This document shows positions 41,517 through 62,679 of a stretch of 64,000 nucleotides of DNA, piece by piece (position 1 is the stretch's first letter; every line of letters begins with the position of its first letter). This stretch comes from Chloroflexota bacterium. Its GTDB lineage: Bacteria > Chloroflexota > Limnocylindria > Limnocylindrales > CSP1-4. The position numbers and the translations under genes were made by a program. The DNA lies in NCBI GenBank assembly GCA_039931975.1, contig JBDTQW010000001.1, positions 2,921-66,920 on the forward strand, in the 5' to 3' direction. Below the pieces are notes generated by a model that was not told where the DNA came from, searched no databases, and was given only the letters and a program-made list of their open reading frames with translations.

Positions 41517-44500
41517 ATGATCTGCGAGAGCTGCGGGACCGAGAACCGAGCCGGCCGGCGGTTCTGTCGGTCGTGCGGCAACGCGATGGCGGCGCTCTGC
41601 CCAGCATGCGGCTCGCCGGCCGAGCCGGGCGACCGCTTCTGTGGCACGTGTGGCAACCCGCTCACGGCGGAGACGGGCGTCGCCGCCGCCGACGGTCCCT
41701 CGGCGGGCCCAGGCCCGGACGCCGGTCCGTCCGGAGCCGGCGCGTCGACCGAGCGCCGAGTCGTCAGCGTCCTGTTCGCCGACCTGGTCGGCTTCACGGC
41801 CCTGTCCGCCGATCGCGACCCGGAGGCGGTCCGCGAATTCCTCGACGGCTACTTCGCCCTGGCCCGAGAGCGGATCGGGCGCTACGGCGGCACCATCGAG
41901 AAGTTCATCGGCGACGCGGTCATGGCCGTCTGGGGCACGCCGGTCGCCCACGAGGACGACGCTGAGCGAGCGGTCCGGGCGGCGCTGGACCTGCTGGATG
42001 CGATCGCTGAGCTCCGCGCGCCGGACGGATCGGCGATCGCGGTCCGCGGCGCGGTCCTCACCGGCGAGGCGGCGGTTGCGATCGGCCGTGACGGCCAGGC
42101 GATGGTCGCCGGGGATCTCGTCAACACGGCGTCGCGTCTCCAGAGCGTGGCTCCTCCAGGCTCCGTCCTCGTCGGAGAGGCCACCGTCAACGCCTCGGAA
42201 TCTGCGATCGTGTACGAGCCGGCCGGCGACCAGCTCCTCCGCGGCAAGGAGCTTCCGGTGTCCGCCTGGCGGGCCGTTCGCGTCGTGGCCGGGCGCGGCG
42301 GGTTCGGCCGGACCACCCGGCTCGAGGCGCCGTTCGTCGGTCGGGACGACGAGCTCCGACTGCTCAAGGAGCTGCTTCACGTCACTGCCCGCGACCGCCG
42401 AGCGCGGCTGGTCTCCATCCTCGGGATCGCCGGGATCGGCAAGAGCCGGCTGGCCTGGGAGCTCGAGAAGTACATCGACGGGTTGGTCGAGGTCGTCTAC
42501 TGGCACCAGGGCCGTTCTCCGGCGTACGGCGACGGCGTGGCGTTCTGGGCCCTCGGCGAGATGATCCGGGGGCGGGCCCGGATCGCCGAGTCGGACCCGC
42601 CTGACATTGCCCGGGTGAAGCTCGCGACGATGGCCGAGGAATACCTCCCGGACCCCGACGAGCGGACGCGGGTCGAGCCCCGTCTGGCGACCCTGCTTGG
42701 ACTGGGGGGCGAGTCCGCCGGCAGTGCCGAGGAGCTGACCGCAGCCTGGCGCACGCTATTCGAGCGGATCGCCGACCGGGGCACCACCGTGCTCGTGTTC
42801 GAAGACCTCCATTGGGCGGACGCCGGGCTGCTCGACTTCATCGAGAGCCTGCTCAGCGCGTCACGGAACCGCCCGATCCTCGTCATCGCTCTAGCCCGGC
42901 CCGAGCTGATCGAGGATCGCCCGGGATTCGGCGCAACGCTCCGGAACCACACCCGCCTCGATCTCGCGCCGCTGACGGACGAGGCGATGGACATGCTCCT
43001 CCTCGGTCTCGTCCCGGGCATCCCCCAGGCGGCCCTGCGGACCATCCGGGATCGGGCAGCGGGCATCCCGCTGTACGCCGTCGAGACCGTCCGGATGCTC
43101 CTCGACCAGGGGCGTCTGAGCGAGTCCGAGGGCCGCTTCCGGTTGGTCAGCGACCTGGGATCGCTGGCGGTCCCGGAGTCGCTCCAGGCGCTCCTCGGGG
43201 CACGGCTCGACACGCTCGACGAGCCCGCCCGCGAGCTCGTCGAGATCGCCGCCGTCCTCGGCCTGAGTTTCACGGTCGACGCCCTCGTGGCCTTGTCGGA
43301 CCGGCAGGAAGCCGAGGTACGCCGCCGGCTCGATGGCCTCGTCGCGCGGGAGGTCTTCCAGTTCGACGACGATCCCTCGTCTCCGGAACGAGGCCAGTTC
43401 CAGTTCATCCAGGGGGTCCTGCGCGAGGTGGCCTATACCCGGCTCGCCCGACGAGAGCGGCTCGCCCGACACCTGGCGGCGGCGAACTACTACGAGACCC
43501 GAGCGGGCGAGGAGCTGGCCGGGATCGTGGCCTGTCACTACCAGGACGCGCTGAACAGTGCTCCGGACGACGCTGATCGGTCCGAGCTTGCCGTGCAGGC
43601 CGGGACCGCCCTCGAGGCCGCCGCGAACCGCTCGACCGCGATCGGCGCCCACGCCAGCGCGGCAGGCTACCTCGGGGACGCCGCCAAGCTAACGACCGAT
43701 GAGGCCGAACGATCCCGGTTGAACGAGATGCGCTCCAACGCGTTGGGCGCCGCCGGCCAGCTCGACGAGGCCGGGAACCTGGCTCGTGAGCTCGTCGAGC
43801 TGGGCCGCCTGCGTGGCGACCGAGGCCTCGAGGCGCGAGCGGCGATCAGTCTCACCGCCGCCCTGCTCGGGAGCGGTCGTCCGGCCGATGCGCGGCGCGA
43901 GGCCGAGGCGGTCCGGGCATCGCTGGGGCCCTTCGCGGACGAGGAGCCCGACGGGATCCGGCTGACAGCGGAGGTCGCGCGAGCCCAGCTGATGAGCGGC
44001 GACCATGGCGCCGCGCTCGAGCTCATCGAGGCGACCCTTCCGATCGCGGAACGGCTCGGGCTGCGAGAGGTGATGGCCCAGCTCCTGCCGAGCTGGGGCT
44101 GGGCGTTGAACGGCGACGGTCGGCCGATCGAGGCGCTGGCGGTCCTGCGCGGTGCGCTCGCGTTCGCCGAGCGCGAGGGCCTGTTCGAGGCAGAGATGCG
44201 TTCTCGGATGAACCTGTCCTCGTTCGCGGTGCGCGAGTCGCCGGCCGAGGCGCTCGAGGTGGCCTGGACCGGCAGCGTCCATGCGCGCGAGCGTGGCTAC
44301 ATCGGCTGGTCGAACTCGGCCGCAGGAAACGTCGCTTCGTGTGCCCGTCCGCTCGGTGAGTGGGACCGGATCGAGTCGATCGGGTCCGAGCTCGACTCGC
44401 TCGGCGATTGGCTCAGCCCGTGGGACTTCGCGGTCCCGGCCGAGATCTGCATCATCCGCGCGTATCGCGGCCGAGCCGCGGAGGCGCGCGACCTGATCGA

Positions 44501-45104
44501 GCGGTTCGAGCGCCAGTTCGGCGACATGTCGGACCCGCAGATCCAGGTGACCCTCATCTTGCTTCGCGAGAGCATGGCCCTGGCCGAAGGCGACCTGGCC
44601 GAGTCCATCCGGGCCAGTCGCGAGGCCCAACGGTTGCTGGACCAGCTCGGGACCGAGGACCTGTTCTCGGAGGCGCTCGCGGCGGCGGTCGAGGCGCTCG
44701 ATGCCGAGCGCGTTGGCGAAGTGGCGGACGCGATCCGCCGCGGCGGGGCCGCCGGTCGCGTCTCCGGCGCCGTTCTAACGGCGGCATCCGGCGCGCTGCG
44801 GGTCCTCGACGGCGACCGGTCGGCGTTGGAGGAGCTCGACCGTGCGGCCGACGTGCTCCGGCAGGAGGGCGTCCGATTCGCGCTCGCCCTGATCCGCCGG
44901 GCCCGAGTCATGCTCGCTCCGGAAGACGCCGGAGCCGACGCGGCGGCGGCCGAGGCTCGGGCGATCCTGACCGACCTCGGGGCCGTCACGATGTTGCGGG
45001 GCCTGCCCGCTCCGTCCGTGGTGATGAGGGAGGACGAACCGACCGGCGCGCAGACGGCCCATGCCTCGACCGATCCGGGTACCGCGGGGGTGGCCCCCGG
45101 CTGA
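41517..45104 (+). CDS. Multidomain signalling protein: double zinc ribbon, class III adenylate/guanylate cyclase domain, STAND/AAA ATPase and a TPR-like helical repeat region. No DNA-binding domain is evident.
   Basis: The N-terminus CESCGTEN...CRSCG / CPACG...CGTCG forms two zinc ribbons. The cyclase core is RVVSVLFADLVGFTALS...GGTIEKFIGDAVMAVWG. Walker A is ILGIAGIGKSRLAWE and Walker B-like is VLVFEDLHWAD. About 650 aa of helical repeats follow. Confidence 0.85.
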   Translation: MICESCGTENRAGRRFCRSCGNAMAALCPACGSPAEPGDRFCGTCGNPLTAETGVAAADGPSAGPGPDAGPSGAGASTERRVVSVLFADLVGFTALSADRDPEAVREFLDGYFALARERIGRYGGTIEKFIGDAVMAVWGTPVAHEDDAERAVRAALDLLDAIAELRAPDGSAIAVRGAVLTGEAAVAIGRDGQAMVAGDLVNTASRLQSVAPPGSVLVGEATVNASESAIVYEPAGDQLLRGKELPVSAWRAVRVVAGRGGFGRTTRLEAPFVGRDDELRLLKELLHVTARDRRARLVSILGIAGIGKSRLAWELEKYIDGLVEVVYWHQGRSPAYGDGVAFWALGEMIRGRARIAESDPPDIARVKLATMAEEYLPDPDERTRVEPRLATLLGLGGESAGSAEELTAAWRTLFERIADRGTTVLVFEDLHWADAGLLDFIESLLSASRNRPILVIALARPELIEDRPGFGATLRNHTRLDLAPLTDEAMDMLLLGLVPGIPQAALRTIRDRAAGIPLYAVETVRMLLDQGRLSESEGRFRLVSDLGSLAVPESLQALLGARLDTLDEPARELVEIAAVLGLSFTVDALVALSDRQEAEVRRRLDGLVAREVFQFDDDPSSPERGQFQFIQGVLREVAYTRLARRERLARHLAAANYYETRAGEELAGIVACHYQDALNSAPDDADRSELAVQAGTALEAAANRSTAIGAHASAAGYLGDAAKLTTDEAERSRLNEMRSNALGAAGQLDEAGNLARELVELGRLRGDRGLEARAAISLTAALLGSGRPADARREAEAVRASLGPFADEEPDGIRLTAEVARAQLMSGDHGAALELIEATLPIAERLGLREVMAQLLPSWGWALNGDGRPIEALAVLRGALAFAEREGLFEAEMRSRMNLSSFAVRESPAEALEVAWTGSVHARERGYIGWSNSAAGNVASCARPLGEWDRIESIGSELDSLGDWLSPWDFAVPAEICIIRAYRGRAAEARDLIERFERQFGDMSDPQIQVTLILLRESMALAEGDLAESIRASREAQRLLDQLGTEDLFSEALAAAVEALDAERVGEVADAIRRGGAAGRVSGAVLTAASGALRVLDGDRSALEELDRAADVLRQEGVRFALALIRRARVMLAPEDAGADAAAAEARAILTDLGAVTMLRGLPAPSVVMREDEPTGAQTAHASTDPGTAGVAPG

Positions 45105-45248
45105 CCTGCCGGCGGCCGTTCCAGGTTGCGGTTCCGGCTTGATTCCCAGGCGCGGGGGTGCCACCATCGCGGTTCACCTCTCCCGACCCGCTCCGTCCCC
45201 CGGAGAGGCGCATCGACCGGTCCCCGCGCACCTCGGAAGGAGAGCCCC

Positions 45249-45752
45249 GTGGTCGCTGAGCACGTCAAGCTGACCGTCAACGGCGTCGAGCGAGAGGTGG
45301 TGGTCGAGCCCAGACGACTGCTCGTACATGCGCTCCGCGAGGACCTTGGGCTGACCGGCACCCATGTCGGCTGCGATACCAGCCAGTGCGGCGCCTGCAC
45401 GGTCCAGCTCGATGGACGAGCCGTCAAGTCGTGTGCCGTCCTGGCCGTCCAGGTCGACGGGTCCACGATCACGACGATCGAGGGCCTCGCCCCCGCAGAC
45501 GGGCTCCATCCGCTCCAGACCGCGTTCTGGGAGAAGCACGGCCTGCAGTGCGGGTTCTGTACGCCCGGGATGATCATGGCTGCGGCCGACCTGCTGGCCG
45601 GCAACCCCGATCCGACCGACGACGAGATCCGGCACGCGATCGAGGGCAACATCTGCCGTTGCACCGGCTACCACAACATCGTGGCTGCGATCCGCGAAGC
45701 AGCGGCGACGATCCGGGCCGGTTCTGCGGCCCCCATCACCGTCAACGCCTGA
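45249..45752 (+). CDS. coxS: Aerobic-type molybdenum hydroxylase small subunit with two [2Fe-2S] clusters, CoxS-like
   Basis: Two cysteine motifs are present: [11 protein letters not shown] (plant-type) and CGFCTPGM...CRCTGY. A GGAAGGAGAG Shine-Dalgarno sequence is followed by a GTG start at 45249. Confidence 0.9.
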
Positions 45753-45765
45753 GAGGAGGCTCCCG

Positions 45766-48165
45766 ATGGCCACCGACGTCCTGGGCGCCTCGATTAAGCG
45801 TGTCGAGGACCCGCGTTTCATCACTGGCAAGGGCCGCTATCTCGACGACATCAAGCTGCCCGGGATGACCTACATGGCCATTTTGCGCAGCCCGTACGCC
45901 CACGCCAACATCCGCTCCGTCGACACCGCTGCAGCGGCCGCGATGCCCGGCGTGGTGACGGTCCTGACCGGCGCCGACGTCCCCTACAACCCGCTGCCGA
46001 TGGCCTGGCCGGCCGGTGGCTCGTCGGGGGTCCAGAACAACATCAACATGCCCCGGGCGCTGGCGACCGACAGCGTCAAGTGGACCGGCGAGGGCGTCGC
46101 CGCGGTCATCGCCGAGACGCCCGAGCAGGCGGCCGACGCGCTCGATGCGATCGTCGTCGACTGGGAGCCGCTGCCGACCGTGGTCGACGCCGAGAAAGCG
46201 GTCCAGGACGGCGCGCCGCAGCTCCACGAGAACGCTCCGAACAACGTCGTGTTCGAGTGGACGGTCGGCGACAAGGCCGGCACGGACGCGGCCATCGAGG
46301 CTGCGGAGGTCGTGGTCCGCCAGCGGATCGTCAACCAGCGGCTCATCCCCAACCCAATGGAGGTGCGCGGCGACATCGGCCTGTACAACCCCGGCACCGA
46401 GGAGTACACGGTCTGGATGTCGAGCCAGACGCCGCACATCCAACGGCTCCTGCTCACCGCCTTCGTGACCGGCATCCCCGAGCACAAGGTCCGCTGCATC
46501 GCTCCCGACGTCGGCGGCGCGTTCGGGACCAAGATCTTCTGCTACGCGGACATGGCCCTGGTCATGCTCGCCTCGAAGCTCATCGGTGGACGCCCGGTGA
46601 AGTGGGTCGAGACCCGGCGGGAGAACTACCAGAGCACGACCCACGGTCGCGACCACATCACCTACCTGGAGATCGCGGGCAATCGCCAGGGGGAGATCAG
46701 CGGGCTTCGGGTCAAGACCTATGCCAACCTCGGCGGCCGGCTCTCGACGATCGGCCCGGGCATCCCGACGACCCTCTACGCCCGCGTCCTGGCGGGCTGT
46801 TACAAGATCCCCAACGTCCATTGCGAGGTCACTGGCGTCTACACCAACACGACCTTCGTCGACGCCTATCGCGGCGCCGGACGGCCCGAGGCGACCTACG
46901 TGATCGAGCGCGCGATGGACCTGTTCGCCGACGAGATCGGAATGGATCCTGCGGCGATCCGGCGCAAGAACTTCATCGCCCCCGACCAGTTCCCGTATGA
47001 CAACCCGTCGGGCCTCGGCACCGCGGTCAACGGCGAGAAGATCTACATCGATTCGGGCAACTATGAGCCGGCCCTGGACAAGGCCCTGACCGCCGTCGGC
47101 TACTACACGCTCGACAAGGACAAGGCCGAGGCGCGCAAGCGCGGCAAGTACCTTGGCGTCGGCCTGTCGACCTACATCGAGGTCTGCGGCGTTGCGCCGT
47201 CGAAGTGGATCGGCGCGGTCGGCGAGGGCTGGGGCGCCGCGATGTGGGAGTCGGCCAATCTCAAGGTCCACCTGACCGGCAAGATCATCCTGACGATGGG
47301 TACCCAGCCCCAGGGCCAGGGTCACGAGACGACTTACTCACAGATCATCGCCTCGGAGCTGGGCCTGCCGATGGAGGACATCATCGTCCAGCACTCGGAT
47401 ACCCAGGGGACGCCGTTCGGCTATGGCTCGTACGGCAGCCGGACGGGGTCGGTCGGGGGGACCGCGGCGGTCCTGGTCGCCGGCAAGATCCGCGAGAAGG
47501 CCCGCCGTTATGCCGCGCACATGCTCGAGGCCTCGGTCGACGACATCGAGGTCGAGGGCAACGAGTACCGGGTCAAGGGCTCGCCCGAGCAGAAGAAGAC
47601 GCTCCAGGAGATCGCCTTCGCGCTCGATCTCGGGTTCAGCCTGCCCGACGGCATGGAGCCATATCTCGACGAGACCGTGTACCACGACACGCCGAACTGC
47701 ACCTGGCCGTTCGGGACCCACGTGGCCATCGTCGAGATCGACGAGGAGACCGGCGTCGTCGACCTCAAGCGATACGTCGCGGTCGACGACGTCGGCAAGA
47801 AGATCAACCCGATGATCGTCGACGGCCAGCTCCACGGCGGGATCGTCCAGGGCGTCGGGCAGGCACTCTGGGAGGAGGCCGTCTACAACGACGACGGCCA
47901 GCTCCTGTCGGGCACCATGCTCGACTATGCGCTGCCCAGGGCGTCCTGGCTGCCGGCGCTCGAGCTGGACGAGACGGTCACCCCGTCGCCGGTCAACCCG
48001 CTGGGGGTCAAGGGCGTCGGCGAGGCCGGCGCGATCGCCAGCACGGCGGCCGTGGCCAACGCCGTCATCGACGCGCTCAGTCCGCTCGGCGTGCGTCATC
48101 TCGACATGCCCCTGACGGCACCCAAGATCTGGGGCGCCATCCACGGGAAGGAGGCCCGCGCGTGA
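45766..48165 (+). CDS. coxL: Molybdopterin-binding large subunit of an aerobic-type Mo hydroxylase, form II CoxL-like with an AYRGAGR active-site loop
   Basis: The protein is 799 aa. The N-terminus is [23 protein letters not shown]. The active-site loop [14 protein letters not shown] is the form-II signature rather than form-I VAYRCSFR. Confidence 0.9.
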
Positions 48166-49028
48166 TCCCGGCAGCCTTCAATTACACCCGTCCCGCTGAT
48201 CTGGCCGCCGTCCTCGAGCAGCTCGCGAACGGCGGGGACGGGGTCAAGGTCCTGGCCGGAGGCCAGAGCCTCATCCCGCTCCTCCGGCTGCGCCTGGCCA
48301 GCGCCGCCACGCTCGTCGACATCGGCGGGCTGCCCGAGCTGCGCAGGATCCGCGAGCTGCCCGACGGCGACCTGGGGATCGGCGCGACCGTCACCTACCG
48401 GGAGGTCCTCGACTCGGAGGTGGCGACCGCACGGGTCCCGCTGCTGGCCCTGGCCATCCAGGGCATCGGCGACGTCCAGGTACGCAACCGGGGCACCCTC
48501 GTCGGCTCGATCGCCCACGCCGATCCCGCCTCGGACATGCCCGCCATCGTGCTCGCCCTCGACGCCACCCTGACGATCCGCTCGAGGCGTGGTGAGCGGG
48601 AGGTGGCCGCCGCCGACTTCTTCGAGGGCCCGTTCGTCACGGGACTGGAAGATGACGAGCTGGTGACCGAGCTCCGGATCCCGGCTCCACCGGCCGGAGC
48701 GGGGATGGCCTATCGCCGGCTCGAGCAGCGCGCCTCGGGCTATTCGATCGCCGGCGTGGCAGCCGTCGTCGGCCGCTCGGGCGGCTCGGTGACGACCGCC
48801 CGGGTGGGCATCACCGGCGTCGGCGATGCCGCCTACCGGGCGGCGGCTGTCGAGACTGCGCTCCTCGGCACGAGCGGCGACGCGGCGGCGATCGCCGCGG
48901 CCGCGGCGCACGCGACCGATGGGGTCACCGTCGCCTCGGATATCCACGCCGGGGTGGAATATCGGGCCGAGATGGCGCGGGTCCACACTCGACGGGCGAT
49001 CGAGGCGGCGCTGGCCGCCAGCGACTGA
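48162..49028 (+). CDS. coxM: FAD-binding medium subunit, CoxM-like
   Basis: The FAD-binding PCMH domain contains AGGQSLIPLL. It belongs to the CO dehydrogenase flavoprotein family. The GTG start overlaps the coxL stop. Confidence 0.85.
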   Translation: MIPAAFNYTRPADLAAVLEQLANGGDGVKVLAGGQSLIPLLRLRLASAATLVDIGGLPELRRIRELPDGDLGIGATVTYREVLDSEVATARVPLLALAIQGIGDVQVRNRGTLVGSIAHADPASDMPAIVLALDATLTIRSRRGEREVAAADFFEGPFVTGLEDDELVTELRIPAPPAGAGMAYRRLEQRASGYSIAGVAAVVGRSGGSVTTARVGITGVGDAAYRAAAVETALLGTSGDAAAIAAAAAHATDGVTVASDIHAGVEYRAEMARVHTRRAIEAALAASD

Positions 49029-49037
49029 CCCCGGCGG

Positions 49038-50117
49038 GTGCGGCTCGAGCGGATCGTCCCGGGTCGCCCCCCGCCGCCAGGGTTGGCAGGGGCGGTACTG
49101 ACCCGTGACCTGGTCGTCGACGGTCGGCGCTGGGCCAAGGGTCGCGTCCTGGGCGTCGACGACCTGGCGGCCATCGGGTCGCCGACGGTTCGGGTCGAGG
49201 GCGGGCCGCGCAGCCTGGCCGCCGGCATCGCCGTCATCGTCCTCGAACCGACCGACCTCCACGAGGACGAGGCCGCCCGCCGGCTGGCAGCCGCCGTCGG
49301 CGGCCCGGGTGTCGTGGTCCGCGGACCGGCCGAGAGCCGCATCGACCTGTTGGCCGCGCACGACGGGGTGGTCCACGTCGGGGCGGCCCAGGTGGAGCGC
49401 CTCGACCGGATCGATCCGGTCGAGGTCTTCACCGTGTTCGACGGGCAGGTCGTCCGGGCCGGCGAGCTCGTGGCCAGCGTCAAGGTGGCGCCACACGTCG
49501 TGCCTGCGGCGACGATCGAGCGGGCCGAGCGGATCGCCGCCCGGTCCGGGTCGGGCGGACTCGTCAGCGTCGCCGGTTTCGTGCCCCGCCGGGTCGCGGT
49601 GGTGGTCAAGGAGTCGCTCCATGCCCCGGCTCGCGAGCGGTTCGAGGCGAGCGTCCGGCTCAAGGTCGAGTCGCTGGGCTCGTCCCTCGGCACGGTGGCC
49701 TACGTGGACGACGACGCCGAGGCCGTGACCGAGGCGCTCGCTGCCGTCGCTCGCGGCCGGGGCCGCGCCCGGGCCGACCTGGTGCTGACCGCCGGCTCGG
49801 CCAGCACGGATCCCTCCGACCCGTTCTTCGTGGCTATCGAACAGCTCGGTGGACGGATCGTCCGGCACGGGGTGCCGGCCCACCCAGGGTCGATGCTCTG
49901 GTTGGCTCGGATCGGGCAGACCGATCTTCTCGGGCTGCCGACCTGCGGGGCGTACTCCAAGGCGACCGCGGCCGACCTGCTCCTGCCGCGGCTCCTGTCG
50001 GGTGAACGAGCCAGCGCCGCCACCGTGGCCCGCCTCGGGGTGGGCGGCATCCTCACCCGGTCGATGCGGTTCCGGTTCCCGGCCTACGCCCGCGAGCTGG
50101 ACGCGCCGGACGGCTGA
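49038..50117 (+). CDS. Molybdopterin-binding (MoCF-biosynthesis-like) domain protein in the cox accessory cluster
   Basis: A MoeA/MogA-like region is present (DLVLTAGSASTDPSDP, a GGTG-like motif). Its position mirrors accessory genes in cox clusters. Confidence 0.55.
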   Translation: MRLERIVPGRPPPPGLAGAVLTRDLVVDGRRWAKGRVLGVDDLAAIGSPTVRVEGGPRSLAAGIAVIVLEPTDLHEDEAARRLAAAVGGPGVVVRGPAESRIDLLAAHDGVVHVGAAQVERLDRIDPVEVFTVFDGQVVRAGELVASVKVAPHVVPAATIERAERIAARSGSGGLVSVAGFVPRRVAVVVKESLHAPARERFEASVRLKVESLGSSLGTVAYVDDDAEAVTEALAAVARGRGRARADLVLTAGSASTDPSDPFFVAIEQLGGRIVRHGVPAHPGSMLWLARIGQTDLLGLPTCGAYSKATAADLLLPRLLSGERASAATVARLGVGGILTRSMRFRFPAYARELDAPDG

Positions 50118-53795: not shown

Positions 53796-55256
53796 GTGGA
53801 ACAGCGCGTCCCGGCGACCGTCGCGCCGCCTGCCGAGATCGAGGGCGGGACGCCGGACCTGCTCCGTCACACGGCCGATGTGGCCATCGCCTACCGTTCG
53901 TCCCTGGCCGAGCGTCGGGTGGGGTCCGCGCCCGGGCTGACCGCTGAGTCGCTTCGAGCCAGCCTCGGCGGCCCGCTGCGCGACCTCGGCGAGGATCCGC
54001 GGACCGTCATCGATGACCTGGTGGCCGGGGTCGAGCCGGGCCTCGTCGCGATGGGCTCACCGCGCTACTTCGGGTTCGTCATCGGCGGCTCGGTTCCGGC
54101 CGCCCTGGCCTCCGACTGGCTGACCTCGACCTGGGAGCAGAACACCGGACTGTACCTGGCGACGCCGGCGGCGTCAGTCGTCGAGGAGATCGTGGGTGGC
54201 TGGCTGCTGGACCTGTTCGGGCTGCCGCCCGGCAGCTCGGTCGGGTTCACCTCGGGCGCCACGATGGCCCACTTCACGGCACTGGCCGCGGCGCGTCACG
54301 CCGTCCTGCGCCAGGTCGCCTGGGACGTCGAGGAGGATGGCCTGATCGGCGCGCCGGCGATCCACGTGATCGTCGGCAAGGACGTGCACGTGTCCCTCGT
54401 GAAGGCCCTCCGGATGGTCGGCCTTGGTCGACGCCGGGCGATCCGCGTGGCGAGCGATGACGAGGGCCGGATGCGGCCGGCCGAGCTGCGACAGGTGCTG
54501 GCCCAACTGCCCGCTGGCCCGACGGTCGTGTGCGCCCAGGCCGGCGAGGTGAACACCGGCGCGTTCGATCCGCTCGATGAGATCGCCGACGTGCTGCGTG
54601 ACCGGCCGGGCGCCTGGCTCCACGTCGACGGCGCCTTCGGCCTGTGGGCCGCCGCGGTCCCGGCGATGCGGTCGCGGGTGGCCGGCAACGACCGAGCGGA
54701 CTCGTGGACCACCGATGCCCACAAGTGGCTCAATGTCCCGTACGACTCTGGCCTCGTCTTCGTTCGCGACGTCGCCGCGCATCGGGCAGCGATGGGTGCG
54801 GCAGCCGCCTACCTGCCTCCGGCCACGGGTGCCGAGCGCGATCCCTTCGATTACGTGCCCGAGCTGAGCCGGAGGGCGCGCGGCTTCGCGGTCTCTGCCG
54901 CGCCGCGCTCGCTCGGTCGGGCCGGCGTCGCCGAGCTGGTCGAGCGGACCTGTGCGGTGGCTCGGCGGATGGCCGAGCGGCTGGCGTCGGTTTCCGGCAG
55001 CGAGCTCCTCAACGAGGTGGTCCTCAACCAGGTCCTCGTCCGCTTCGACGACGACGATGAGCTGACTAGGGACGTGGCCGCCCGGGTCCAGGCCGAAGGC
55101 ACGGCCTGGCTGGGTGGGACCACCTTCCACGGCCGCCAGGCGATCCGGATCTCCGTCTCCAACTGGGCCACGACCGAGGCCGACGGCGACCGCTCGGTCG
55201 ACGCCATCGTGCGCAGTCTCGGGGAAGCCCGGGTCGCGCACGGTCGCCCGGGCTGA
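53796..55256 (+). CDS. PLP-dependent group II decarboxylase, of the amino-acid decarboxylase or DABA decarboxylase family
   Basis: The PLP-lysine region is TDAHKWLNVPYDSGLVFVRD. The protein is 486 aa with an aminotransferase class V/decarboxylase fold. Confidence 0.8.
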   Translation: MEQRVPATVAPPAEIEGGTPDLLRHTADVAIAYRSSLAERRVGSAPGLTAESLRASLGGPLRDLGEDPRTVIDDLVAGVEPGLVAMGSPRYFGFVIGGSVPAALASDWLTSTWEQNTGLYLATPAASVVEEIVGGWLLDLFGLPPGSSVGFTSGATMAHFTALAAARHAVLRQVAWDVEEDGLIGAPAIHVIVGKDVHVSLVKALRMVGLGRRRAIRVASDDEGRMRPAELRQVLAQLPAGPTVVCAQAGEVNTGAFDPLDEIADVLRDRPGAWLHVDGAFGLWAAAVPAMRSRVAGNDRADSWTTDAHKWLNVPYDSGLVFVRDVAAHRAAMGAAAAYLPPATGAERDPFDYVPELSRRARGFAVSAAPRSLGRAGVAELVERTCAVARRMAERLASVSGSELLNEVVLNQVLVRFDDDDELTRDVAARVQAEGTAWLGGTTFHGRQAIRISVSNWATTEADGDRSVDAIVRSLGEARVAHGRPG

Positions 55257-55291
55257 GCACCCGACCCGTCATCGACGCCGAGACGGACTCG

Positions 55292-56731
55292 ATGACGCAG
55301 GCTGGCCGGTTCGGCGCCGTCGTCCTGGCGGCCGGGGCCGGTTCGCGCTTTGGAGGTCGCAAGCTCCTGGCGCCCCTCAACGGTCGCCCGGTCCTTGGTC
55401 ACGTCCTCGAGGCGATCCGGGCCGCGGGGCTGAGCGACACGGTCGTGGTCCTCGGTCACGGCGCGGAGGCGATCGAATCGGCGATCCCGTGGGTCGCCGA
55501 GCGGCGGGTCGTCAACGCTGACCCCGACGCCGGGCTGTCGAGCTCGCTTCGTGTCGGCTTCGCCGCGCTCGACCCCGCCGATCTCGTGGGCGTCTTCGTG
55601 GTCCTGGGTGACCAGCCCCAGGTCGATCCGGCCGTGTTCGACGCCCTTCGCCGAGCGGAGGTCCGAGCCGCGGTGGCCTTTGTTGTGCCACGCTACCTCG
55701 GCGGCGGCGGCCCGAACCCGGTCCTCGTCCTGCGCGACGGCTGGCCCCACGTCGCCGCGGCCGACGGCGATCGCGGGCTCGGTCCGATCCTGGCGACCCA
55801 TCCCGAGCTCGTTGCCGAGGTCGAGCTGGGCGGCTCGAACCCGGACGTCGACACCGCGGCCGACCTGGCCGAGCTGGCCTGGGCCGACCGCGTCCGGCGC
55901 AACCGCGACCAGGTCGACCGTCACCGCGAGGTGCCGGACGGACCCGACTTCTACGGCCCGATGACCGGTCTCTTCCGGGCCGATCCCCGGCGGACCGACG
56001 AGCCCCTTCTCGATGCCCTCCGCGCCCTGGCCCGACCGGAGGACAGCTGGCTCGACATCGGCGCCGGCGCAGGCCGCTACGCCCTGCCTCTGGCGTTGCG
56101 CGTCCGAGAGGTCCTCGCCGTCGAGCCGTCGGATGGCATGCGGGCGGCCCTGACCGAGCTGATGGACCAGCACGGGATCGTCAACGTCCGGGTGCTCGCC
56201 GACCGCTGGCCGCCCGAGCCGGGCTCGTCCGCGGCCCAGCTCCGGGCGGACGTCGCCCTTATCGCCAACCTGGGCTATGACATCGAAGCGATCGGCCCGT
56301 TCATCGACTCCATGGAGACCGCGGCCAGCCGGCGCTGCGTGGCCGTCCTGATGGACCGCCAGCCGTCGTCCATCGTCGATCCGTTCTGGCCGCCCATCCA
56401 CGGCGAGGAGCGGGTCGCCCTGCCAGCCCTGCCCGAATTCCTGGACTTTCTCCGGGCCCTCGGCCGCCGGGCCGACGTGGCCCTGTACGACCGGCCGCCG
56501 CGGGGCTTCGACTCGCTCGACGAGCTGCACGGTTTCGTCCGCCGCCAGCTGTGGCTGGCCGAGGGCGGCCGCCAGGACCGCCGTCTGCGCGCCCTGCTCG
56601 AACAGAGTGCCCTGGAGGCCGCCGGGCGCTGGTCGCTGCCATTCGGGCGGACGCGGATCGGGCTCGTCTCCTGGACCCCGGCCGGTGCCGGCTCGACGAC
56701 GGGCGCCGACGCAGCGGCACGGACCGTCTGA
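55292..56731 (+). CDS. Fusion protein: an N-terminal MocA/MobA-like nucleotidyltransferase (molybdenum cofactor cytidylyl/guanylyltransferase-like) joined to a C-terminal class I SAM-dependent methyltransferase
   Basis: The N-terminus is AVVLAAGAGSRFGGRKLLAPLNGRPVL, with an NTP-transferase G-rich loop. The C-terminal half has the LDIGAGAGRYALPLA SAM-binding motif I followed by motif II/III-like segments. Confidence 0.7.
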   Translation: MTQAGRFGAVVLAAGAGSRFGGRKLLAPLNGRPVLGHVLEAIRAAGLSDTVVVLGHGAEAIESAIPWVAERRVVNADPDAGLSSSLRVGFAALDPADLVGVFVVLGDQPQVDPAVFDALRRAEVRAAVAFVVPRYLGGGGPNPVLVLRDGWPHVAAADGDRGLGPILATHPELVAEVELGGSNPDVDTAADLAELAWADRVRRNRDQVDRHREVPDGPDFYGPMTGLFRADPRRTDEPLLDALRALARPEDSWLDIGAGAGRYALPLALRVREVLAVEPSDGMRAALTELMDQHGIVNVRVLADRWPPEPGSSAAQLRADVALIANLGYDIEAIGPFIDSMETAASRRCVAVLMDRQPSSIVDPFWPPIHGEERVALPALPEFLDFLRALGRRADVALYDRPPRGFDSLDELHGFVRRQLWLAEGGRQDRRLRALLEQSALEAAGRWSLPFGRTRIGLVSWTPAGAGSTTGADAAARTV

Positions 56732-56770
56732 GCGGCGGCGCCGGGACAAAGCACGACCGTGGGACCCTCG

Positions 56771-56799: not shown

Positions 56800-56938
56800 C
56801 GCGCAACGACCCCGTGCATCGCCGGAACCGGCAGCCGCGTTTCTCATCCTGCTGGACAGGGCGCCAGCCTCGAGTCGACATCCAGCTCGCGCGGCATTCC
56901 CCGTCGCGCATCGTCCCGCGGGGCGCAGAGGAGGACGG

Positions 56939-57811
56939 ATGATCCCGAGTCAGTTCGAGTACGTCCGACCAGCCGGCCTCGACGATGCGCTGCGGATCCT
57001 CGCCGAGCGTGAGGGCGAGGCCAAGGTCCTATCCGGCGGCTACAGCCTCCTGCCGCTCCTCAAGCTGCGGCTGGCTCAGCCCGCCCTCCTGGTCGACATC
57101 CGCGACGTCGATGGCCTCGCCGGGATCGTCGAGACGAATGATGGGCTGCGGATCGGCGGCCGCGTCACGCATCGGCAGATCCACGAGGATCCGGCGATCC
57201 GAGCCGGATATCCGTTGCTGACCGACGCGGCCGGCGGGATCGGAGACCCGCAGATCCGCAACTGGGGCACGATCGGCGGTTCCTGCGCCCACGCCGATCC
57301 CTCCGCCGATTGGCCGGCGGTCCTTCTCGCCGTCCGAGCGACGCTGGTCTGCCAGAGCAGCACTGGGCAGCGCGAGGTGGTCGCCGCCGACTTCTTCATC
57401 GACACCTTCCAGACCGCGATCGAGCCGACCGAGCTGCTGGTCGAGGTCCGGATCCCGCGCTGGCCGAAGGGAAGTGGCGGGGCCTATGCCAAGCTCGAGC
57501 GAAGAGCCGGGGATTTCTCGACGGTCGGCTGCGCGGCGATGATCGAGATCGTGGGCGCTGGCACGATCGGGGACGCCGCGATCGGTCTGACCGCGGTCGC
57601 CGACAGCCCGTTCGCGTCAGCCGGGGCAGCCGCCGCGCTGATTGGCGCCAGCCCGAGCGAGGCGACCTTCCGCGCCGCCGGTGCGGCCGCGGCGAGCGAG
57701 TCGAACCCGGCCGCTGACGGTCACGGACCCGTCGACTACAAGCGGGCCATGGTCGAGGAGATGACCGTCCGGGCCTTGCGCAGCGCCGTCGATCGCGCGC
57801 TGGCGCAATGA
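56939..57811 (+). CDS. coxM: FAD-binding medium subunit, CoxM-like (second copy)
   Basis: The N-terminus is [18 protein letters not shown], followed by [14 protein letters not shown]. It is a paralog of the 48162 gene. The ATG at 56939 is in frame. Confidence 0.85.
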
Positions 57812-57824
57812 CAGGGAGCGTGCG

Positions 57825-58367
57825 ATGACCACCCAGAAGGTCCACCTCACCGTCAACGGCGAGGCCCGCGAGGCGGAGGTCGAGCCGCGGCTCCTCCTCG
57901 TCCACCTGCTGCGCGACGTGTTCACCTTGACCGGCACCCACATCGGCTGCGACACCAGCAACTGCGGGGCATGCACCATTCTCGTCGACGGCGAAAGCGC
58001 CAAGTCGTGCACGATGCTGGCCCTCAGCGCCGAGGGCCGCGAGATCACGACGATCGAGGGCCTGGCCGACGGTGCCACCCTCCACCCGCTCCAGCAGGCG
58101 TTCTGGGACCAGCACGGCCTGCAATGCGGCTTCTGCACCCCGGGCATGATCATCCAGGCCTCGTGGTTGCTCGCCCGCAATCCCGACCCGTCCGAGGCCG
58201 AGATCCGCGAAGGGATCGCCGGTAACCTCTGCCGCTGCACCGGCTACGTCAACATCGTCAAGGCGATCCAGCAAGCCGCCGGCGAGCTGAGCGCCGTTGC
58301 TGCGGCCCCGGTCGTGGCCGCCGAGACGATCGATCCGGGCGCCGCCGATGCAGCCGCGGCCGGCTGA
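57825..58367 (+). CDS. coxS: [2Fe-2S] small subunit, CoxS-like (second copy)
   Basis: The cysteine motifs [11 protein letters not shown] and CGFCTPGM...CRCTGY are present. It is a paralog of the 45249 gene. Confidence 0.9.
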
Positions 58368-58381
58368 GCGAGGCGAACGAG

Positions 58382-58654
58382 ATGGCCGCAGACGCGCTCC
58401 AGACGACGCCCGAAGTGGGCGGCATGGGCCACTCAGTTAAGCGCAAGGAGGATGCCCGCTTCATCCAGGGCCGGGGCGAATACATCGACGACCTGGTCCT
58501 GCCCGGCATGCTCTGGCTGGACATCGTCCGGAGCCCGTACGCCCACGCCCGGATCAAGGGCATCGACGCGACCGAGGCACTGGCGATCCCCGGTGTCCTG
58601 GCGGTTCGCGAGCCGACGGCCTACGTCGGGACCGGCGCCACGACCGGCGGCTGA
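58382..58654 (+). pseudogene. Truncated CoxL-like large-subunit gene. Only the N-terminal ~85 conserved residues remain.
   Basis: GMGHSVKRKEDARFIQGRGEYIDDLVLPGMLWLDIVRSPYAHARIKGIDATEALAIPGVLAV aligns with the N-terminus of the 799-aa CoxL at 45766. The ORF stops 21 nt before coxG. About 700 codons are missing. Confidence 0.65.
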
Positions 58655-58674
58655 GCGATCAGCCCGGAGGAGCG

Positions 58675-59115
58675 ATGCATTTCGAAGGCAGAGTCGAGAT
58701 CGCGGCTCCCCGCGACAAGGTCTGGTCGTTCGTCATCGATCCGACCGAAGTGGGCCAGTGCGGACCGGGTGTCGAGTCGGTCGAGGCCGTCGACGACAGC
58801 CACTTCAAGGCGAAGGCCAAGGTCGGCATCGGCTTCATCCGCGCCCGGTTCAACGCCGACGGCGAGATGATCATCATCTCTCCGCCGGAGCTCGCCGAGG
58901 TGAAGGTCCACGGCCAGGCGCCCGGCAGTGCCGCCGACGCGGTCGCGACGATCAAGCTGAGCCAGGGCGGCGAGGGCATCACGATCATGGACTGGTCGGC
59001 CGAGGTCAACATCTCGGGCACCCTGGCCAGCGTGGGCGCGAGGCTCATCGAAGGCACGGCCAACAAGCTCATCGCTCAGACGTTCGCGTGCATGAAGACC
59101 AAGCTCGAGGGCTGA
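58675..59115 (+). CDS. coxG: CoxG-like SRPBCC-fold protein (carbon monoxide dehydrogenase subunit G family)
   Basis: The protein is 146 aa with a polyketide-cyclase/SRPBCC-like composition. It begins MHFEGRVEIAAPRDKVWSFVIDP. Its position after coxL matches cox clusters. Confidence 0.75.
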   Translation: MHFEGRVEIAAPRDKVWSFVIDPTEVGQCGPGVESVEAVDDSHFKAKAKVGIGFIRARFNADGEMIIISPPELAEVKVHGQAPGSAADAVATIKLSQGGEGITIMDWSAEVNISGTLASVGARLIEGTANKLIAQTFACMKTKLEG

Positions 59116-59124
59116 TCGGACCGC

Positions 59125-62100
59125 TCAGCGCTCGAGCGGCGACTGCGCAGGGGACGCCGATCCTTCGGACGGTCCTCCGGCCGCGACGCCAGCCGACCCC
59201 GCCGGCGCTGGGCGAGACCAGTGCTCGACCCCGATCCTCAGACGCTCCAGGTACGGCGGTGAGCCCAGGCGGGTGAAGATCTCCCCGGCCTCGACGGCTG
59301 CCGCCCGGGCGGCCGGGTCGTCGGGACCGACCAGCGTCGCGAACTCCAGGAGGCACAGGCCCAGATCGAATGGGAGATCGAGCTCGCGGAAGGTCGCGGA
59401 CGCCGCGCGGTACCCCTCGGCGGCCTCCGATCGACCCCCTTCGAGCGCCGCAAGGCCTGCCTGCAGCGACCGCCGGATCGCCCCGGAATACCGGCCGCGT
59501 TCGGGGGCCGCGATCACGAGCTCATAGGCGGACCGAGCCTTCTGGAGATCGCGCATCGAGAGCGCCCAGCGCATCGCAAGCGTGGCGTACACGATTGCCG
59601 GCGCGAGCCTGGCGCCGGTCATCGCCTCGTCGAACGCCTCCTCGACATCGTTGTCCAGACCGACGATCTGTGATCGATCGGAATGCCGCCAAGCCAGGAA
59701 CTCAGGCCGGGAGATATCCGTGGCGACCGCTTCGGAGGCCGACAGCAGCTCCCGCGCCGACCCGGCGTCACCACGCAACGCTGCAATGACCGCACGTGCG
59801 CTCAGGTTGGCGTCCTGATCGTAGGAGCTGAGATCGCCCGCTTCCAGCTCCTCGACGTTTTGTAGGGCACGGTCCCATTCCCCGAAGGCGATGCTGGCCT
59901 TCATCGTGCCCCAGGTCGCCCACCTGTACTGCTCGCCACTGCCAAGCGAGCGCGCCCGTTCGATGGCTTCGAGACTTACTGCATCGGCGGCCCGCGGGTC
60001 GTCGTTCCAGAGCTGTACCGCGAGATTGCTCCGGCCTCGCAGCTCCGCCGTCGTCAGACCATTGGCCGTAGCAAGCTCGATCGCTCCTCGGAGCAGGGCG
60101 ATGCCTTCGACTGGCCTTCCCTCGGTATCGAGGATCGCAGCCTTCGTGACGAGCGCGTCGGCCAGGATCCAGACGGCCTCGAGTGGTTCGGCCATCGCGA
60201 TCGCCCGTTCGATCGTCCCGAGCGCCCGGGGGTCGTAGGTCACCATGTAGGCGCGTCCGAGCTCGGCGTGGAGCGCGATCACGTCAGGTTCTCCGGCAAG
60301 CTCCGAGCAGGCTGCCAAGGCGGACTCGAGCAGGTCGATTGCCTCGGCCGACCGTCCGGTCTCGAAGTACGGCTGAGTCTGCCGGATGGTCATACGGGCA
60401 ACGCCACGGAGATCGCCGATGGAGCGATACCAATCCGACGCTTCCCTCGCGGACCGCTCGGCGACGTCGAACCGCGTCGCGCGATTCGCTGCGACGGCGG
60501 CCGAGTCCATGGTCGCGGCTCGCTCGGCCGGATCTGTCGTGACCGTCAGAGCCTTTTCGAGGTAGCTCAACGCCAGGTCATTCGACCCAAGGGCGGTGGC
60601 CCGGTCGGCGGCGGCCCGCAGGGCGACCCGGGCCTGGGCGGCCAGCGCGTCCGATCCCGGGCCCTGGGGCGTCGCGCGGTACGCGTCGAGGTAGTGGCTG
60701 GCGAGGATGCCGGCCAGCTCCTCGCTGTCGAGTGTCTCGAAATAGCGCGCCGCGGCGATGTGACGGGCACGGCGTTCCTTCTTCGCCAGGGTGTCGTAGA
60801 CGACCTCGCGGATGAGCCCCTGGACGAAGGAGTACTGACCTCGCTCGGGCGACCGGGGGTCTTCGTCGAGGGTGAGGATCTCCTGGCGGACCAGGATCCG
60901 GAGGCTCGGTTCGAGCCGTTCCGTCAATCGTCCCGTCAGGGCGGCGAGGGCGTCCACGGTGAAGGTCTGGCCGAGGACGGCAGCATCCTGGAGCAGCGAC
61001 CGTTCCTCGCCCGCCAACCCGTCGATGCGAGCGGCGATCAGGCCTCGCAGCGACTCGGGGATCGCGAGCTCACGCGCGTCGCCTTCGAGCCGATAACGAC
61101 CATCCGCTGGAACGAGGCGACCTTCGTCGACCAGCATCCGGAAGGTCTCGACGGCGAACAGCGGGACCCCGGCGGCACGCTCGACGATCCGACGCATGAA
61201 TGGCCTGGGCAGGCCAGGGGCGACCCCGTCGAGCAGCCCGGTCATCGCCTCGTCCGACAGTGGCTCCAGGTGGAGCGCGGTGAAGTTGCGCTGGCCGGCC
61301 CCCCAGGTCGGCCGACGGTCGAGCAACTCCGGTCGGGCCAGGGTCACGATGAGGATCCGATGGTTGCGGCTCCACTCCAGGATCGATTCGATGAACGTGA
61401 TGAGCCCGCTGTCGGCCCACTGAAGGTCCTCGAACACCAGGACGACGAGACCTCGCTCGGCGATCCGCTCGAGCAGCCCCCGTGCCGCAGCGAAGGCCTT
61501 CTCCTGGTCTTCCCCGCGGGCCTCGCGGAGCCCGAGAAGGGCCTGCAGCCAGGGCTCGATCTCGCCGCGTGCGGTCTCGTCGGGCACGTACTCGTCGAGC
61601 GCCGCCGCCAGCTTTGTCCGGGCAGTCTCGGCGTCATCGACCTCGGCGATCCCCGCGCGGCCGCGGACCATCTCGGCCAGTGCCCAGAAGGCGATGCCCT
61701 CGCCGTAGGCGGGCGACCGACCCTGGTGCCAGTAGACGTCATGGACGATCCCGTCGATGTACTTCTCCAGCTCCCAGGCGAGCCGGCTCTTGCCGATCCC
61801 GGCGATCCCGGTCACCGACACCAGCCGGGCCCGCTTCTCGTCGTCGACTGCGTGAAGCAGGTCCTTGAGCAGGCGGAGCTCGGCGTCACGTCCCACGAAT
61901 GGCGGTTCCAGCCGATCCACGCGACCACCGCCCCCGCGCATCGCGATCACGCCGATCGCGCGCGAGGCGGCCACCGGAGCCGCCTTGCCGCGGAGCTCCA
62001 GCTCACCGGCCGATTGGGATGCGATGGCCGACTCGGTCGCTCGGCGAGTCGGTTCGTCGATCAGCACAGCACCCGGGGGCGCGACGGACTGGAGGCGCGA

Positions 62101-62679
62101 CGTCGCACTGACCAGGTCCCCGCTGACCAGACCCTGACCCACCGCTCCAACGGCCACGGCCGCCTCGCCGGTCATCACGGCGGCTCGGACAGCCAGCCTC
62201 GGACCGTCCGAGTCGAGACCGAGTGCGCCAACGGCGGCGACCAGGTCGAGGGCCGCCCGGACGGCCCGTTCCGCGTCGTCCTCGAACACGGCCGGTGCAC
62301 CCCAGATGGCCATGACCGCGTCGCCGATGAACTTCTCGACGGTTCCGCCGTAGCGCTCGACGATCACTCGCGCGGTCGCAAAGTAGCGGTCCTGGAGGTC
62401 GCGGATCTCCTCGGCGTCGCGACCTTCGGTCAGCGTCGTGAACCCGACCAGGTCGGCGAACAGGATCGACACCACCCGACGCTCAGTTGCCGGCCCGGCC
62501 GACCCGGCGGCCGTTTCGACAGCGGCCTCCTGGAGCGCCGTGCCGCACTCTCCGCAGAACTTGGCCGCGGGCGAGTTGATCGCTCCGCACGCCGGACAAC
62601 CGGAAAAAAGGCGAGTCCCGCACTCGTGACAGAACTTGCGTCCCGGCTCGTTCTCGGTTGAGCAGCTGGGACAGCGCAC
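59125..62679 (-). CDS. Second zinc-ribbon / nucleotidyl-cyclase / STAND-ATPase / TPR protein, a paralog of 41517..45104 in the opposite orientation
   Basis: The N-terminus is MRCPSCSTEN...CHECG / CPACG...CGECG. The cyclase core is RVVSILFADLVGFTTLT...GGTVEKFIGDAVMAIWG. Walker A is VTGIAGIGKSRLAWE and Walker B-like is VLVFEDLQWAD. The N-terminal ~700 aa are nearly collinear with the paralog. Confidence 0.85.
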   Translation of the reverse strand: MRCPSCSTENEPGRKFCHECGTRLFSGCPACGAINSPAAKFCGECGTALQEAAVETAAGSAGPATERRVVSILFADLVGFTTLTEGRDAEEIRDLQDRYFATARVIVERYGGTVEKFIGDAVMAIWGAPAVFEDDAERAVRAALDLVAAVGALGLDSDGPRLAVRAAVMTGEAAVAVGAVGQGLVSGDLVSATSRLQSVAPPGAVLIDEPTRRATESAIASQSAGELELRGKAAPVAASRAIGVIAMRGGGGRVDRLEPPFVGRDAELRLLKDLLHAVDDEKRARLVSVTGIAGIGKSRLAWELEKYIDGIVHDVYWHQGRSPAYGEGIAFWALAEMVRGRAGIAEVDDAETARTKLAAALDEYVPDETARGEIEPWLQALLGLREARGEDQEKAFAAARGLLERIAERGLVVLVFEDLQWADSGLITFIESILEWSRNHRILIVTLARPELLDRRPTWGAGQRNFTALHLEPLSDEAMTGLLDGVAPGLPRPFMRRIVERAAGVPLFAVETFRMLVDEGRLVPADGRYRLEGDARELAIPESLRGLIAARIDGLAGEERSLLQDAAVLGQTFTVDALAALTGRLTERLEPSLRILVRQEILTLDEDPRSPERGQYSFVQGLIREVVYDTLAKKERRARHIAAARYFETLDSEELAGILASHYLDAYRATPQGPGSDALAAQARVALRAAADRATALGSNDLALSYLEKALTVTTDPAERAATMDSAAVAANRATRFDVAERSAREASDWYRSIGDLRGVARMTIRQTQPYFETGRSAEAIDLLESALAACSELAGEPDVIALHAELGRAYMVTYDPRALGTIERAIAMAEPLEAVWILADALVTKAAILDTEGRPVEGIALLRGAIELATANGLTTAELRGRSNLAVQLWNDDPRAADAVSLEAIERARSLGSGEQYRWATWGTMKASIAFGEWDRALQNVEELEAGDLSSYDQDANLSARAVIAALRGDAGSARELLSASEAVATDISRPEFLAWRHSDRSQIVGLDNDVEEAFDEAMTGARLAPAIVYATLAMRWALSMRDLQKARSAYELVIAAPERGRYSGAIRRSLQAGLAALEGGRSEAAEGYRAASATFRELDLPFDLGLCLLEFATLVGPDDPAARAAAVEAGEIFTRLGSPPYLERLRIGVEHWSRPAPAGSAGVAAGGPSEGSASPAQSPLER

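Follow-up and report, generated by a model that had tools for sequence, protein, structure and literature searches.

Two related genes for putative nucleotidyl cyclases face each other across a cluster of cox-type molybdenum hydroxylase genes in a 64,000-nt stretch of DNA from a soil Chloroflexota bacterium of the Limnocylindria (contig JBDTQW010000001.1, positions 2,921 to 66,920; hereafter the window, G+C ~71%). The locus raises the question of whether these genes, A (41517–45104, + strand) and B (59125–62679, – strand), act on the cluster that they enclose, by inverting it or by signalling to it, or whether they have been inherited together with it. We put the probability at roughly 0.7 that the layout is an inherited, lineage-specific arrangement rather than a recombination device, and that any coupling of A and B to the cox genes is specific to one clade and dispensable for the cluster. 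The clade in question has a composite locus made up of form II coxSLM genes, a shared set of maturation genes (MoCF, coxD, coxE, xdhC and mocA), and a form I coxMSL-XdhC/YHS-coxG group, with its ends held by two genes whose lineages parted long ago within a very large family of soluble class III cyclases.

Divergence of genes A and B and the inversion question

A preliminary description of this DNA had reported two paralogous genes in inverted orientation at the ends of the segment, and both open reading frames (ORFs) were found exactly where it had placed them. They encode proteins of 1195 (A) and 1184 (B) residues and are convergent, with their 3′ ends facing inward across 14.0 kb. The two proteins align end to end with 47% identity over 1167 residues (E = 0), and the identity is distributed unevenly, being higher over the N-terminal 650 residues (58%) than over the C-terminal half (33%).

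The same description had treated the genes as long inverted repeats that can drive inversion of the intervening DNA. If so, A and B would flip the 14-kb segment by homologous recombination, as a switch resembling phase variation. The homologous genes do stand in inverted orientation, but at the DNA level their identity is too low for them to count as long inverted repeats for recombination. The best blastn alignment between them has 68.7% identity over 1960 nt, while the codon-aligned sequences are 58% identical overall and 39–53% identical in the 3′ third. Only seven exact matches of at least 15 nt occur, and the longest two, of 32 and 30 nt, encode the catalytic motif EKFIGDAVMA and the Walker A loop. 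Runs of this length are comparable to the shortest stretch that RecA processes efficiently, ~25–30 bp in E. coli, and to that extent they favor the switch. However, DNA identity between the paralogues had been named beforehand as the test of inversion, and inversion fails it.

Comparison with other genomes points in the same direction. Two further contigs carry both genes, which with the window makes three genomes, and the relative orientation is the same in all of them. In ERZ25039488:contig_276 the A-type gene lies at 347648–351196 and the B-type gene at 366712–370260, and in ERZ25039554:contig_19167 the B-type gene lies at 693466–697074 and the A-type gene at 714137–717646, with the cox genes running in the direction of A in each. 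This orientation is kept although the three genomes have diverged to 60–65% protein identity. No A/B chimeras were found: every orthologue is A-like or B-like in both halves and therefore bears no trace of past exchange between A and B. No recombinase gene was found in or beside the 14-kb segment.

The phylogeny of the family also separates the two genes. Of 219 homologues sampled, 169 resemble A more closely than B does when the first 480 aligned residues are compared, and a neighbor-joining tree sets the A-type and B-type clades apart by many other family members. Since A and B are not sister genes, they did not arise by a recent local inverted duplication, and we rejected that origin. With ancient, non-sister paralogues of ~69% DNA identity at best, one orientation in three genomes, and non-chimeric orthologues, we give the proposed inversion next to no credence.

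The arrangement in related genomes

The bracket formed by A and B recurs within one Limnocylindria-like clade of Chloroflexota. A-type orthologues (56–74% identity) lie directly upstream of form II coxS at six loci (L001, L082, L083, L086, L088, and L090), and B-type orthologues (63–88%) stand tail-to-tail with coxG at four (L084, L085, L087, and L170). The genomes with the bracket also agree in gene order over approximately 45 kb around it: M16 peptidase, sigma factor, SRAP, rhomboid, and histidine kinase and response regulator genes lie on one side, and genes for a metallo-beta-lactamase-fold protein (MBL), a sigma factor, and an acetyltransferase on the other.

Synteny with cox genes is therefore real in this clade, but it is absent from most of the nearest cox loci. 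A metagenome scan with CoxL1, the form II large subunit encoded in the window, returned 80 loci with CoxL proteins that are 80–90% identical, and 47 of these have at least 1.5 kb of upstream sequence. No cyclase gene is found upstream of coxS in 44 of the 47, the other three being L090, L102, where the cyclase-STAND homologue is divergent, and L118, where only a fragment is present. The MetE-like gene that precedes A in the window (40469–41497, + strand) instead abuts coxS, at <1 kb upstream, in 28 of the 47 loci, and nine further loci have other content in a gap of 1.7–3.9 kb before coxS, including a Fic gene and a trypsin-like gene. One locus, L145, contains MetE-like, coxSLM, MoCF, coxD, coxE, xdhC, mocA, coxG, and MBL genes, with the MBL gene directly after coxG, and has neither A nor B and no form I cluster.

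The region between A and coxS was compared across loci as well. When the 150 nt preceding coxS were aligned for 20 loci, a promoter-like element emerged as conserved, with an AGGAGG ribosome-binding site after it. The copy of this element in the window (45139–45167, + strand) consists of TTGATT at 45139–45144, a 17-nt spacer, and CACCAT at 45162–45167, in the context CGGCTTGATTCC...GGTGCCACCATCG, and from its conservation we infer that it acts as the promoter of the form II cox operon. The element is kept in loci with and without an upstream cyclase gene, which places A outside the cox operon's own control region. A strict consensus scan of the A–coxS spacer for sigma-70 promoters and terminators called nothing, an informal look at the spacer by eye revealed no CRP-like palindrome, and a search with Rfam yielded one tRNA only, with no riboswitch in the cox leader.

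Beyond the clade, A and B belong to a family with >8000 protein matches in the database, and >598 in species representatives, that extends across Chloroflexota, Actinomycetota, and Dormibacterota. When the 80 best family members of other, species-representative genomes were inspected, 77 had no cox-like gene within 10 kb, and only the closest, L001, was syntenic. Two proteins nested in the A-type clade, P0019 and P0020, are located elsewhere. P0019 is one member of a different convergent pair of zinc-ribbon-cyclase-STAND genes at locus L169 (10001–13558, + strand, and 19312–22848, – strand), which encloses ~6 kb of toxin-antitoxin and two-component genes and no cox genes; convergent pairing within the family is thus not confined to cox loci. 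The arrangement had initially been considered undescribed. Its architecture is in fact abundant and already annotated, under the routine database name 'class 3 adenylate cyclase/TPR repeat protein', whereas in the literature we found no paper that ties cyclase-STAND-TPR proteins to cox genes.

These comparisons bear on the possibility that A and B are dedicated cyclic-nucleotide regulators, with A controlling form II coxSLM and B controlling form I coxMSL-coxG in response to different signals, through a receptor encoded elsewhere. In favor of such regulators, the A-type and B-type positions are kept in all orthologues examined (56–89% identity) except the nested P0019 and P0020, and the control of trace-gas oxidation is still unresolved even in model actinobacteria (PMC13098282). 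However, 44 of 47 near-identical cox loci do without the upstream cyclase gene and L145 does without both, the family as a whole shows no association with cox genes, and the promoter-like element ahead of coxS does not differ between loci with A and loci without it. In addition, no cyclic-nucleotide-binding protein was found among the window ORFs scanned, and with 45-kb flanks that are syntenic too, the linkage may be mere inheritance. The cox loci, the wider family, and the promoter-like element all argue against the dedicated cyclic-nucleotide layer that the preliminary description had suggested for the molybdoenzyme module, and we consider dedicated regulation unlikely.

Several points nevertheless weigh against the view that the arrangement is simply inherited. 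Non-sister family members occupy both boundaries of the locus and are kept there down to 60–65% protein identity, and a B-type orthologue adjoins coxG in five of the five cases examined. Placement at both boundaries exceeds a single chance adjacency, and function could lie behind the conserved positions. Among the loci that are empty of a cyclase gene, the presence or absence of B can be assessed in L145 only, and the neighbor-joining tree carries no support values. Finally, because the flanks are syntenic too, the kept positions of A and B beside the cox genes look no different from inherited gene order, and selection cannot be separated from it. A functional link of A and B to the cox genes is possible.

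Domain architecture, catalytic residues, and possible mode of action

The combination of a double zinc ribbon, a class III cyclase, a STAND ATPase, and TPR repeats that had been proposed for each protein, with no DNA-binding domain, is borne out by Pfam, profile searches, and structure prediction. Pfam models for the zinc ribbon (DZR), Guanylate_cyc (PF00211), and AAA_16 exceed their gathering scores in both A and B, with 72.8 and 55.6 bits, respectively, for Guanylate_cyc (cutoff 21.9) and 74.6 and 72.5 bits for AAA_16. No helix-turn-helix (HTH) family was detected by Pfam in either protein at E ≤ 0.01. A single-sequence search of the STAND half against the PDB gave no match, and a profile search with the C-terminal 930 residues reached only TPR proteins, such as LGN/Pins and kinesin light chain. 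In the AlphaFold2 model of A (mean pLDDT 85), zinc ribbons at residues 1–50 are followed by a disordered linker, the cyclase domain (78–256), a P-loop nucleotide-binding domain (277–480), a helical region (488–620), an alpha-solenoid (623–1160), and a disordered tail. Foldseek matched the modeled cyclase domain to CyaB, Cya2, CyaC, and RhGC with target-normalized TM-scores of 0.8–0.9, and the rest of A to the STAND-TPR sensor protein PH0952 (6mfv) over 766 columns (E = 3e-11). The Walker A (GxxGxGKS) and Walker B (hhhhED) motifs are essentially invariant in 221 homologues, and the eight zinc-ribbon cysteines are conserved. By AAA_16, the Walker motifs, the model of A, and the TPR matches, both proteins are assigned to the STAND NTPases of the MalT-like clade with a TPR sensor layout.

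The cyclase domain of A has the catalytic Asp, Lys, Asp, Arg, Asn, and Arg. In an alignment to Rv1625c (1yk9), residues D89, K129, D133, N203, and R207 of A map onto their catalytic counterparts, and the substrate-defining Asp is replaced by M196. Across 221 homologues, essentially no variation occurs at either metal-binding Asp, at the substrate Lys, at the phosphate-binding Arg, or at the transition-state Arg, and the transition-state Asn is kept in 214. Where the substrate-defining Asp would be expected, a hydrophobic residue is always present, Met in 180 of the 221 and Leu in 36. This residue pattern indicates purifying selection on catalysis across the family, a point in favor of dedicated regulators. 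Because the substrate Asp has given way to Met or Leu, the nucleotide product of A and B cannot be predicted from sequence. B has Leu at this position and Ser instead of the transition-state Asn, a replacement that also occurs in six relatives of B (P0121–P0124, P0127, and P0136). Mutating the equivalent Asn in a mammalian cyclase reportedly lowers kcat, and with its Ser, the B protein of this genome probably has reduced activity. The assignment of A and B as cyclases is supported by the family-wide conservation of catalytic residues, but the substrate-defining Asp departs from it in both proteins and the transition-state Asn in B, and the latter loss speaks against a dedicated regulatory role for B.

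Class III cyclases are active only as dimers, and induced multimerization would therefore be a natural on-switch for an N-terminal cyclase. Following the STAND paradigm, the TPR half of each protein may bind a ligand or a partner protein. Binding would release autoinhibition, allowing the NOD to swap ADP for ATP and multimerize, and the N-terminal cyclase domains would be brought together to form active sites and produce cyclic nucleotide. The analogy is to MalT and PH0952, in which an inducer at the sensor lifts autoinhibition and the NOD exchanges ADP for ATP and multimerizes (PMC4381067, PMC6468293). With sensor halves that are only 33% identical, A and B probably sense different signals, which fits the two inputs expected of dedicated regulators. 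A more specific version of that proposal is that, within the clade, A and B turn different signals into control of the expression or maturation of the form II and form I enzymes, by means of a cyclic nucleotide of unusual specificity set by the Lys-Met/Leu pair. We regard this version as quite improbable; if true, it would represent a second-messenger layer for trace-gas and CO oxidation.

The closest characterized relatives of A and B are Rv0386, Rv1358, and Rv2488c of Mycobacterium tuberculosis, which likewise combine an N-terminal class III cyclase with a MalT/AAA_16 P-loop ATPase and TPR repeats. The Rv0386-type proteins carry a C-terminal LuxR/GerE HTH domain that is not found in A and B, whereas A and B have an additional N-terminal double zinc ribbon with eight conserved Cys. 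Lacking an HTH domain, A and B would be limited to the nucleotide or to protein contacts as their output, with no direct DNA binding. A mycobacterial cyclase with dual adenylyl and guanylyl activity has Gln-Asn as its substrate pair (bioRxiv 10.1101/2024.03.06.583649), and the substrate-defining pair is non-canonical both there and in A and B, where it is Lys-Met/Leu. MalT, PH0952 (6mfv), and AfsR have the same layout of NOD and TPR sensor as A and B, in which both Walker A and Walker B are intact, and MalT-type proteins are presumed to act by inducer-triggered, ATP-dependent multimerization (PMC6468293, PMC4381067, PMC10936776). The effector in A and B differs from theirs in being a cyclase enzyme rather than a DNA-binding domain. 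The best NCBIfam match is TIGR03903, a TOMM system kinase/cyclase fusion, to which the cyclase and ATPase of A and B align over model positions 263–955. At 213–216 bits, these matches are far below the cutoff of 705.75, and A and B have no Pkinase domain and no TOMM genes nearby. The TOMM fusion does provide a precedent for a member of this superfamily that is tied to a particular gene cluster.

A different function is suggested by defense systems. A and B could be NLR-like conflict sensors that use a cyclase as effector, in the manner of Avs-type STAND proteins or Pycsar cyclases, and that occupy variable boundary slots and are unrelated to the cox genes. The family is hugely expanded and multi-copy, its cyclase domain matches the PycC models of PADLOC (best E = 8e-16), and the non-canonical Met or Leu at the site that specifies the substrate does not fix the product. 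In addition, different genes occur between the MetE-like gene and coxS from locus to locus, namely aminotransferase, Fic, trypsin-like, or cyclase genes. However, the PADLOC matches are confined to the cyclase domain, where they score below Pfam Guanylate_cyc, and no STAND defense model was matched. Pycsar is accompanied by an effector, whereas A and B have no adjacent gene for a cyclic-nucleotide-activated effector and no defense island, their neighbors being cox, MetE-like, and MBL genes, and no mobile-element genes flank them. Unlike fast-turnover defense islands, the orthologues are stably syntenic and full-length at 60–90% identity. A defense role therefore appears very improbable to us.

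The cox genes enclosed by A and B

Form I CO dehydrogenases are encoded in the order coxMSL, have the motif AYXCSFR, and are accompanied by accessory genes coxD, E, F, and G, while form II enzymes are encoded in the order coxSLM and have the motif AYRGAGR, and both can occur in one genome (PMC7645674). The form II coxSLM genes with maturation genes, and the partial coxMS-coxL′-coxG group, that had been described between A and B are supported by Pfam and by the AYRGAGR motif. All genes of the segment from coxS1 to coxG lie on the + strand. The operon begins with coxS1 (45249–45752; Pfam Fer2_2 and Fer2), which encodes the [2Fe-2S] small subunit from a GTG start, chosen from the sequence and from orthologues, with the ribosome-binding site GGAAGGAGA. 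It continues with coxL1 for the large subunit (45766–48165; Ald_Xan_dh_C, MoCoBD_1, and MoCoBD_2) and coxM1 for the FAD-binding medium subunit (48162–49028; FAD_binding_5 and CO_deh_flav_C). The order coxS-coxL-coxM and the AYRGAGR motif of CoxL1 predict a form II CO dehydrogenase-like molybdenum hydroxylase, and CoxL1 scores 754 bits against TIGR02416, under the cutoff of 991. The combination of coxM-coxS-coxL order and AYXCSFR motif that defines form I is not found in the window.

Maturation genes follow. They comprise a gene with a molybdopterin-binding MoCF_biosynth domain (49038–50117; PF00994) that is present in all related clusters, a coxD-like gene for a MoxR AAA+ ATPase (50158–51090; AAA_5 and AAA), a coxE-like gene for a VWA protein (51107–52576; VWA_CoxE, 199 bits), and a gene for an XdhC/CoxI-family protein (52670–53767; XdhC_CoxI and XdhC_C). 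The starts of coxS1, coxM1, coxD, and coxE were set by comparison with orthologues. Two further genes in the segment, absent from the preliminary description, encode a pyridoxal phosphate (PLP)-dependent decarboxylase (53796–55256; Pyridoxal_deC) and a MocA-like molybdenum cofactor cytidylyltransferase fused to a methyltransferase-like domain (55292–56731; NTP_transf_3 and Methyltransf_25; 105 bits against TIGR03310, under its cutoff). The decarboxylase gene is variable in related clusters, being present in L083, L087, L088, and L164 and absent from L086 and L145, while the C-terminal methyltransferase-like fusion of MocA is kept in related clusters (L085 and L086).

The second cox group consists of coxM2 (56939–57811; FAD_binding_5 and CO_deh_flav_C; 82% identity to CoxM2 of L085) and coxS2 (57825–58367; Fer2_2 and Fer2; 81% identity to CoxS2 of L085), formerly the medium and small subunit genes of a form I enzyme, followed by a 90-codon relic ORF (58382–58654) and the SRPBCC-family gene coxG (58675–59115; COXG, 123 bits), with which B is convergent. 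In the relic, the first ~76 codons of a form I coxL continue in frame into the final ~15 codons of a gene with XdhC_C and YHS domains. By tblastn it matches residues 6–76 of CoxL2 at 83% identity, its C-terminal REPTAYVG... matches the end of the YHS protein, and the join reads ...PGVLAV|REPTAYVG.... The junction falls at a shared CGTC, a 4-nt microhomology, and ~3.2 kb is missing in comparison with L085 (14028–17461) and L170 (14025–17487). In L085 the second cluster is intact, with coxM, coxS, coxL (795 residues, AYRCSFR, form I), the XdhC_C-YHS gene, and coxG. L170 has the same genes, as does L087, where coxL is split by apparent frameshifts, and L084, the closest relative on the B side (88%), still has the YHS gene.

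This genome appears to have recently lost the catalytic subunit of its form I CO dehydrogenase, unless the junction is an assembly artifact, and the in-frame junction at a microhomology is equally compatible with such an artifact and with a real deletion. A deletion would have orphaned coxM2, coxS2, and coxG, and true CO dehydrogenase has therefore probably been lost. B remains intact and in frame despite the apparent loss of form I coxL. Persistence of B after deletion of its presumed target is a further point against dedicated regulation. The fusion of an XdhC-family domain to YHS lies between form I coxL and coxG at 14028–14777 in L085, 14087–15133 in L087, and 14025–15074 in L170. YHS is a putative copper-binding domain, which would make the XdhC-YHS protein a plausible copper-insertion factor for the Mo-Cu active site.

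The form II neighborhood offers some indication of what its enzyme may act on, the substrate of form II enzymes being unknown (PMC7645674). The MetE-like gene upstream of A has weak Pfam and NCBIfam matches to cobalamin-independent methionine synthase (Meth_synt_2-like), and its start was taken from an alignment to L083. A class III aminotransferase gene occupies the gap before coxS in seven of the seven loci so tested (L117 6338–8359, L147 2876–4648, L163 6115–7680, L166 4924–6198, L167 2593–3960, L168 7295–8581, and L153 1937–3430). A MetE-like partner, a frequent aminotransferase, and a variable PLP decarboxylase in this neighborhood hint that the substrate may be a nitrogen-containing organic compound rather than CO.

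Outside the segment, an MBL gene (62707–63408, + strand; Lactamase_B) follows B as a conserved outer flank. B itself is publicly annotated as an 'AAA family ATPase' of 1115 residues (P0121) with a start 69 codons late, which omits the double zinc ribbon (62473–62679); the GTG start at 62679 is backed by orthologues. On the other side, an ORF for a Ser/Thr kinase with a FIMAH domain (38960–41092, – strand, as listed) overlaps the MetE-like gene. Its kinase domain begins only at residue 229 and the equivalent in a relative has ~504 residues, and its true start is therefore probably at ~40.47 kb. Some relatives have an RskA/ECF-sigma pair in place of this gene. Further upstream in the window are two c-di-GMP-related genes, CHASE3-EAL (11999–14125, – strand) and HD_5/HD-GYP-like (14776–16347, + strand), and the tRNA (11919–11990, + strand).

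The cox clusters themselves are of known types, with the same form I and form II signatures as those of Aminobacter carboxidus and Oligotropha carboxidovorans. They differ from these in that both forms are fused into one locus with a single maturation set, and in that the form I large subunit gene appears to have been deleted. A and B belong to an abundant, annotated family that is biochemically uncharacterized apart from the Rv0386-type proteins. The layout is real but ordinary for its lineage, with inversion refuted and dedicated signaling weakly supported. It illustrates that inverted homologous genes are not necessarily substrates for recombination, and that a neighborhood conserved within a single clade may owe this to inherited synteny and not to functional coupling. 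For a family of >8000 proteins with conserved catalytic residues and an odd substrate residue, the product and the ligands are worth determining. Regulation of CO dehydrogenase and other trace-gas enzymes is still open (PMC13098282), and a link of A and B to the cox genes, if shown, would bear on how trace-gas oxidation is controlled.

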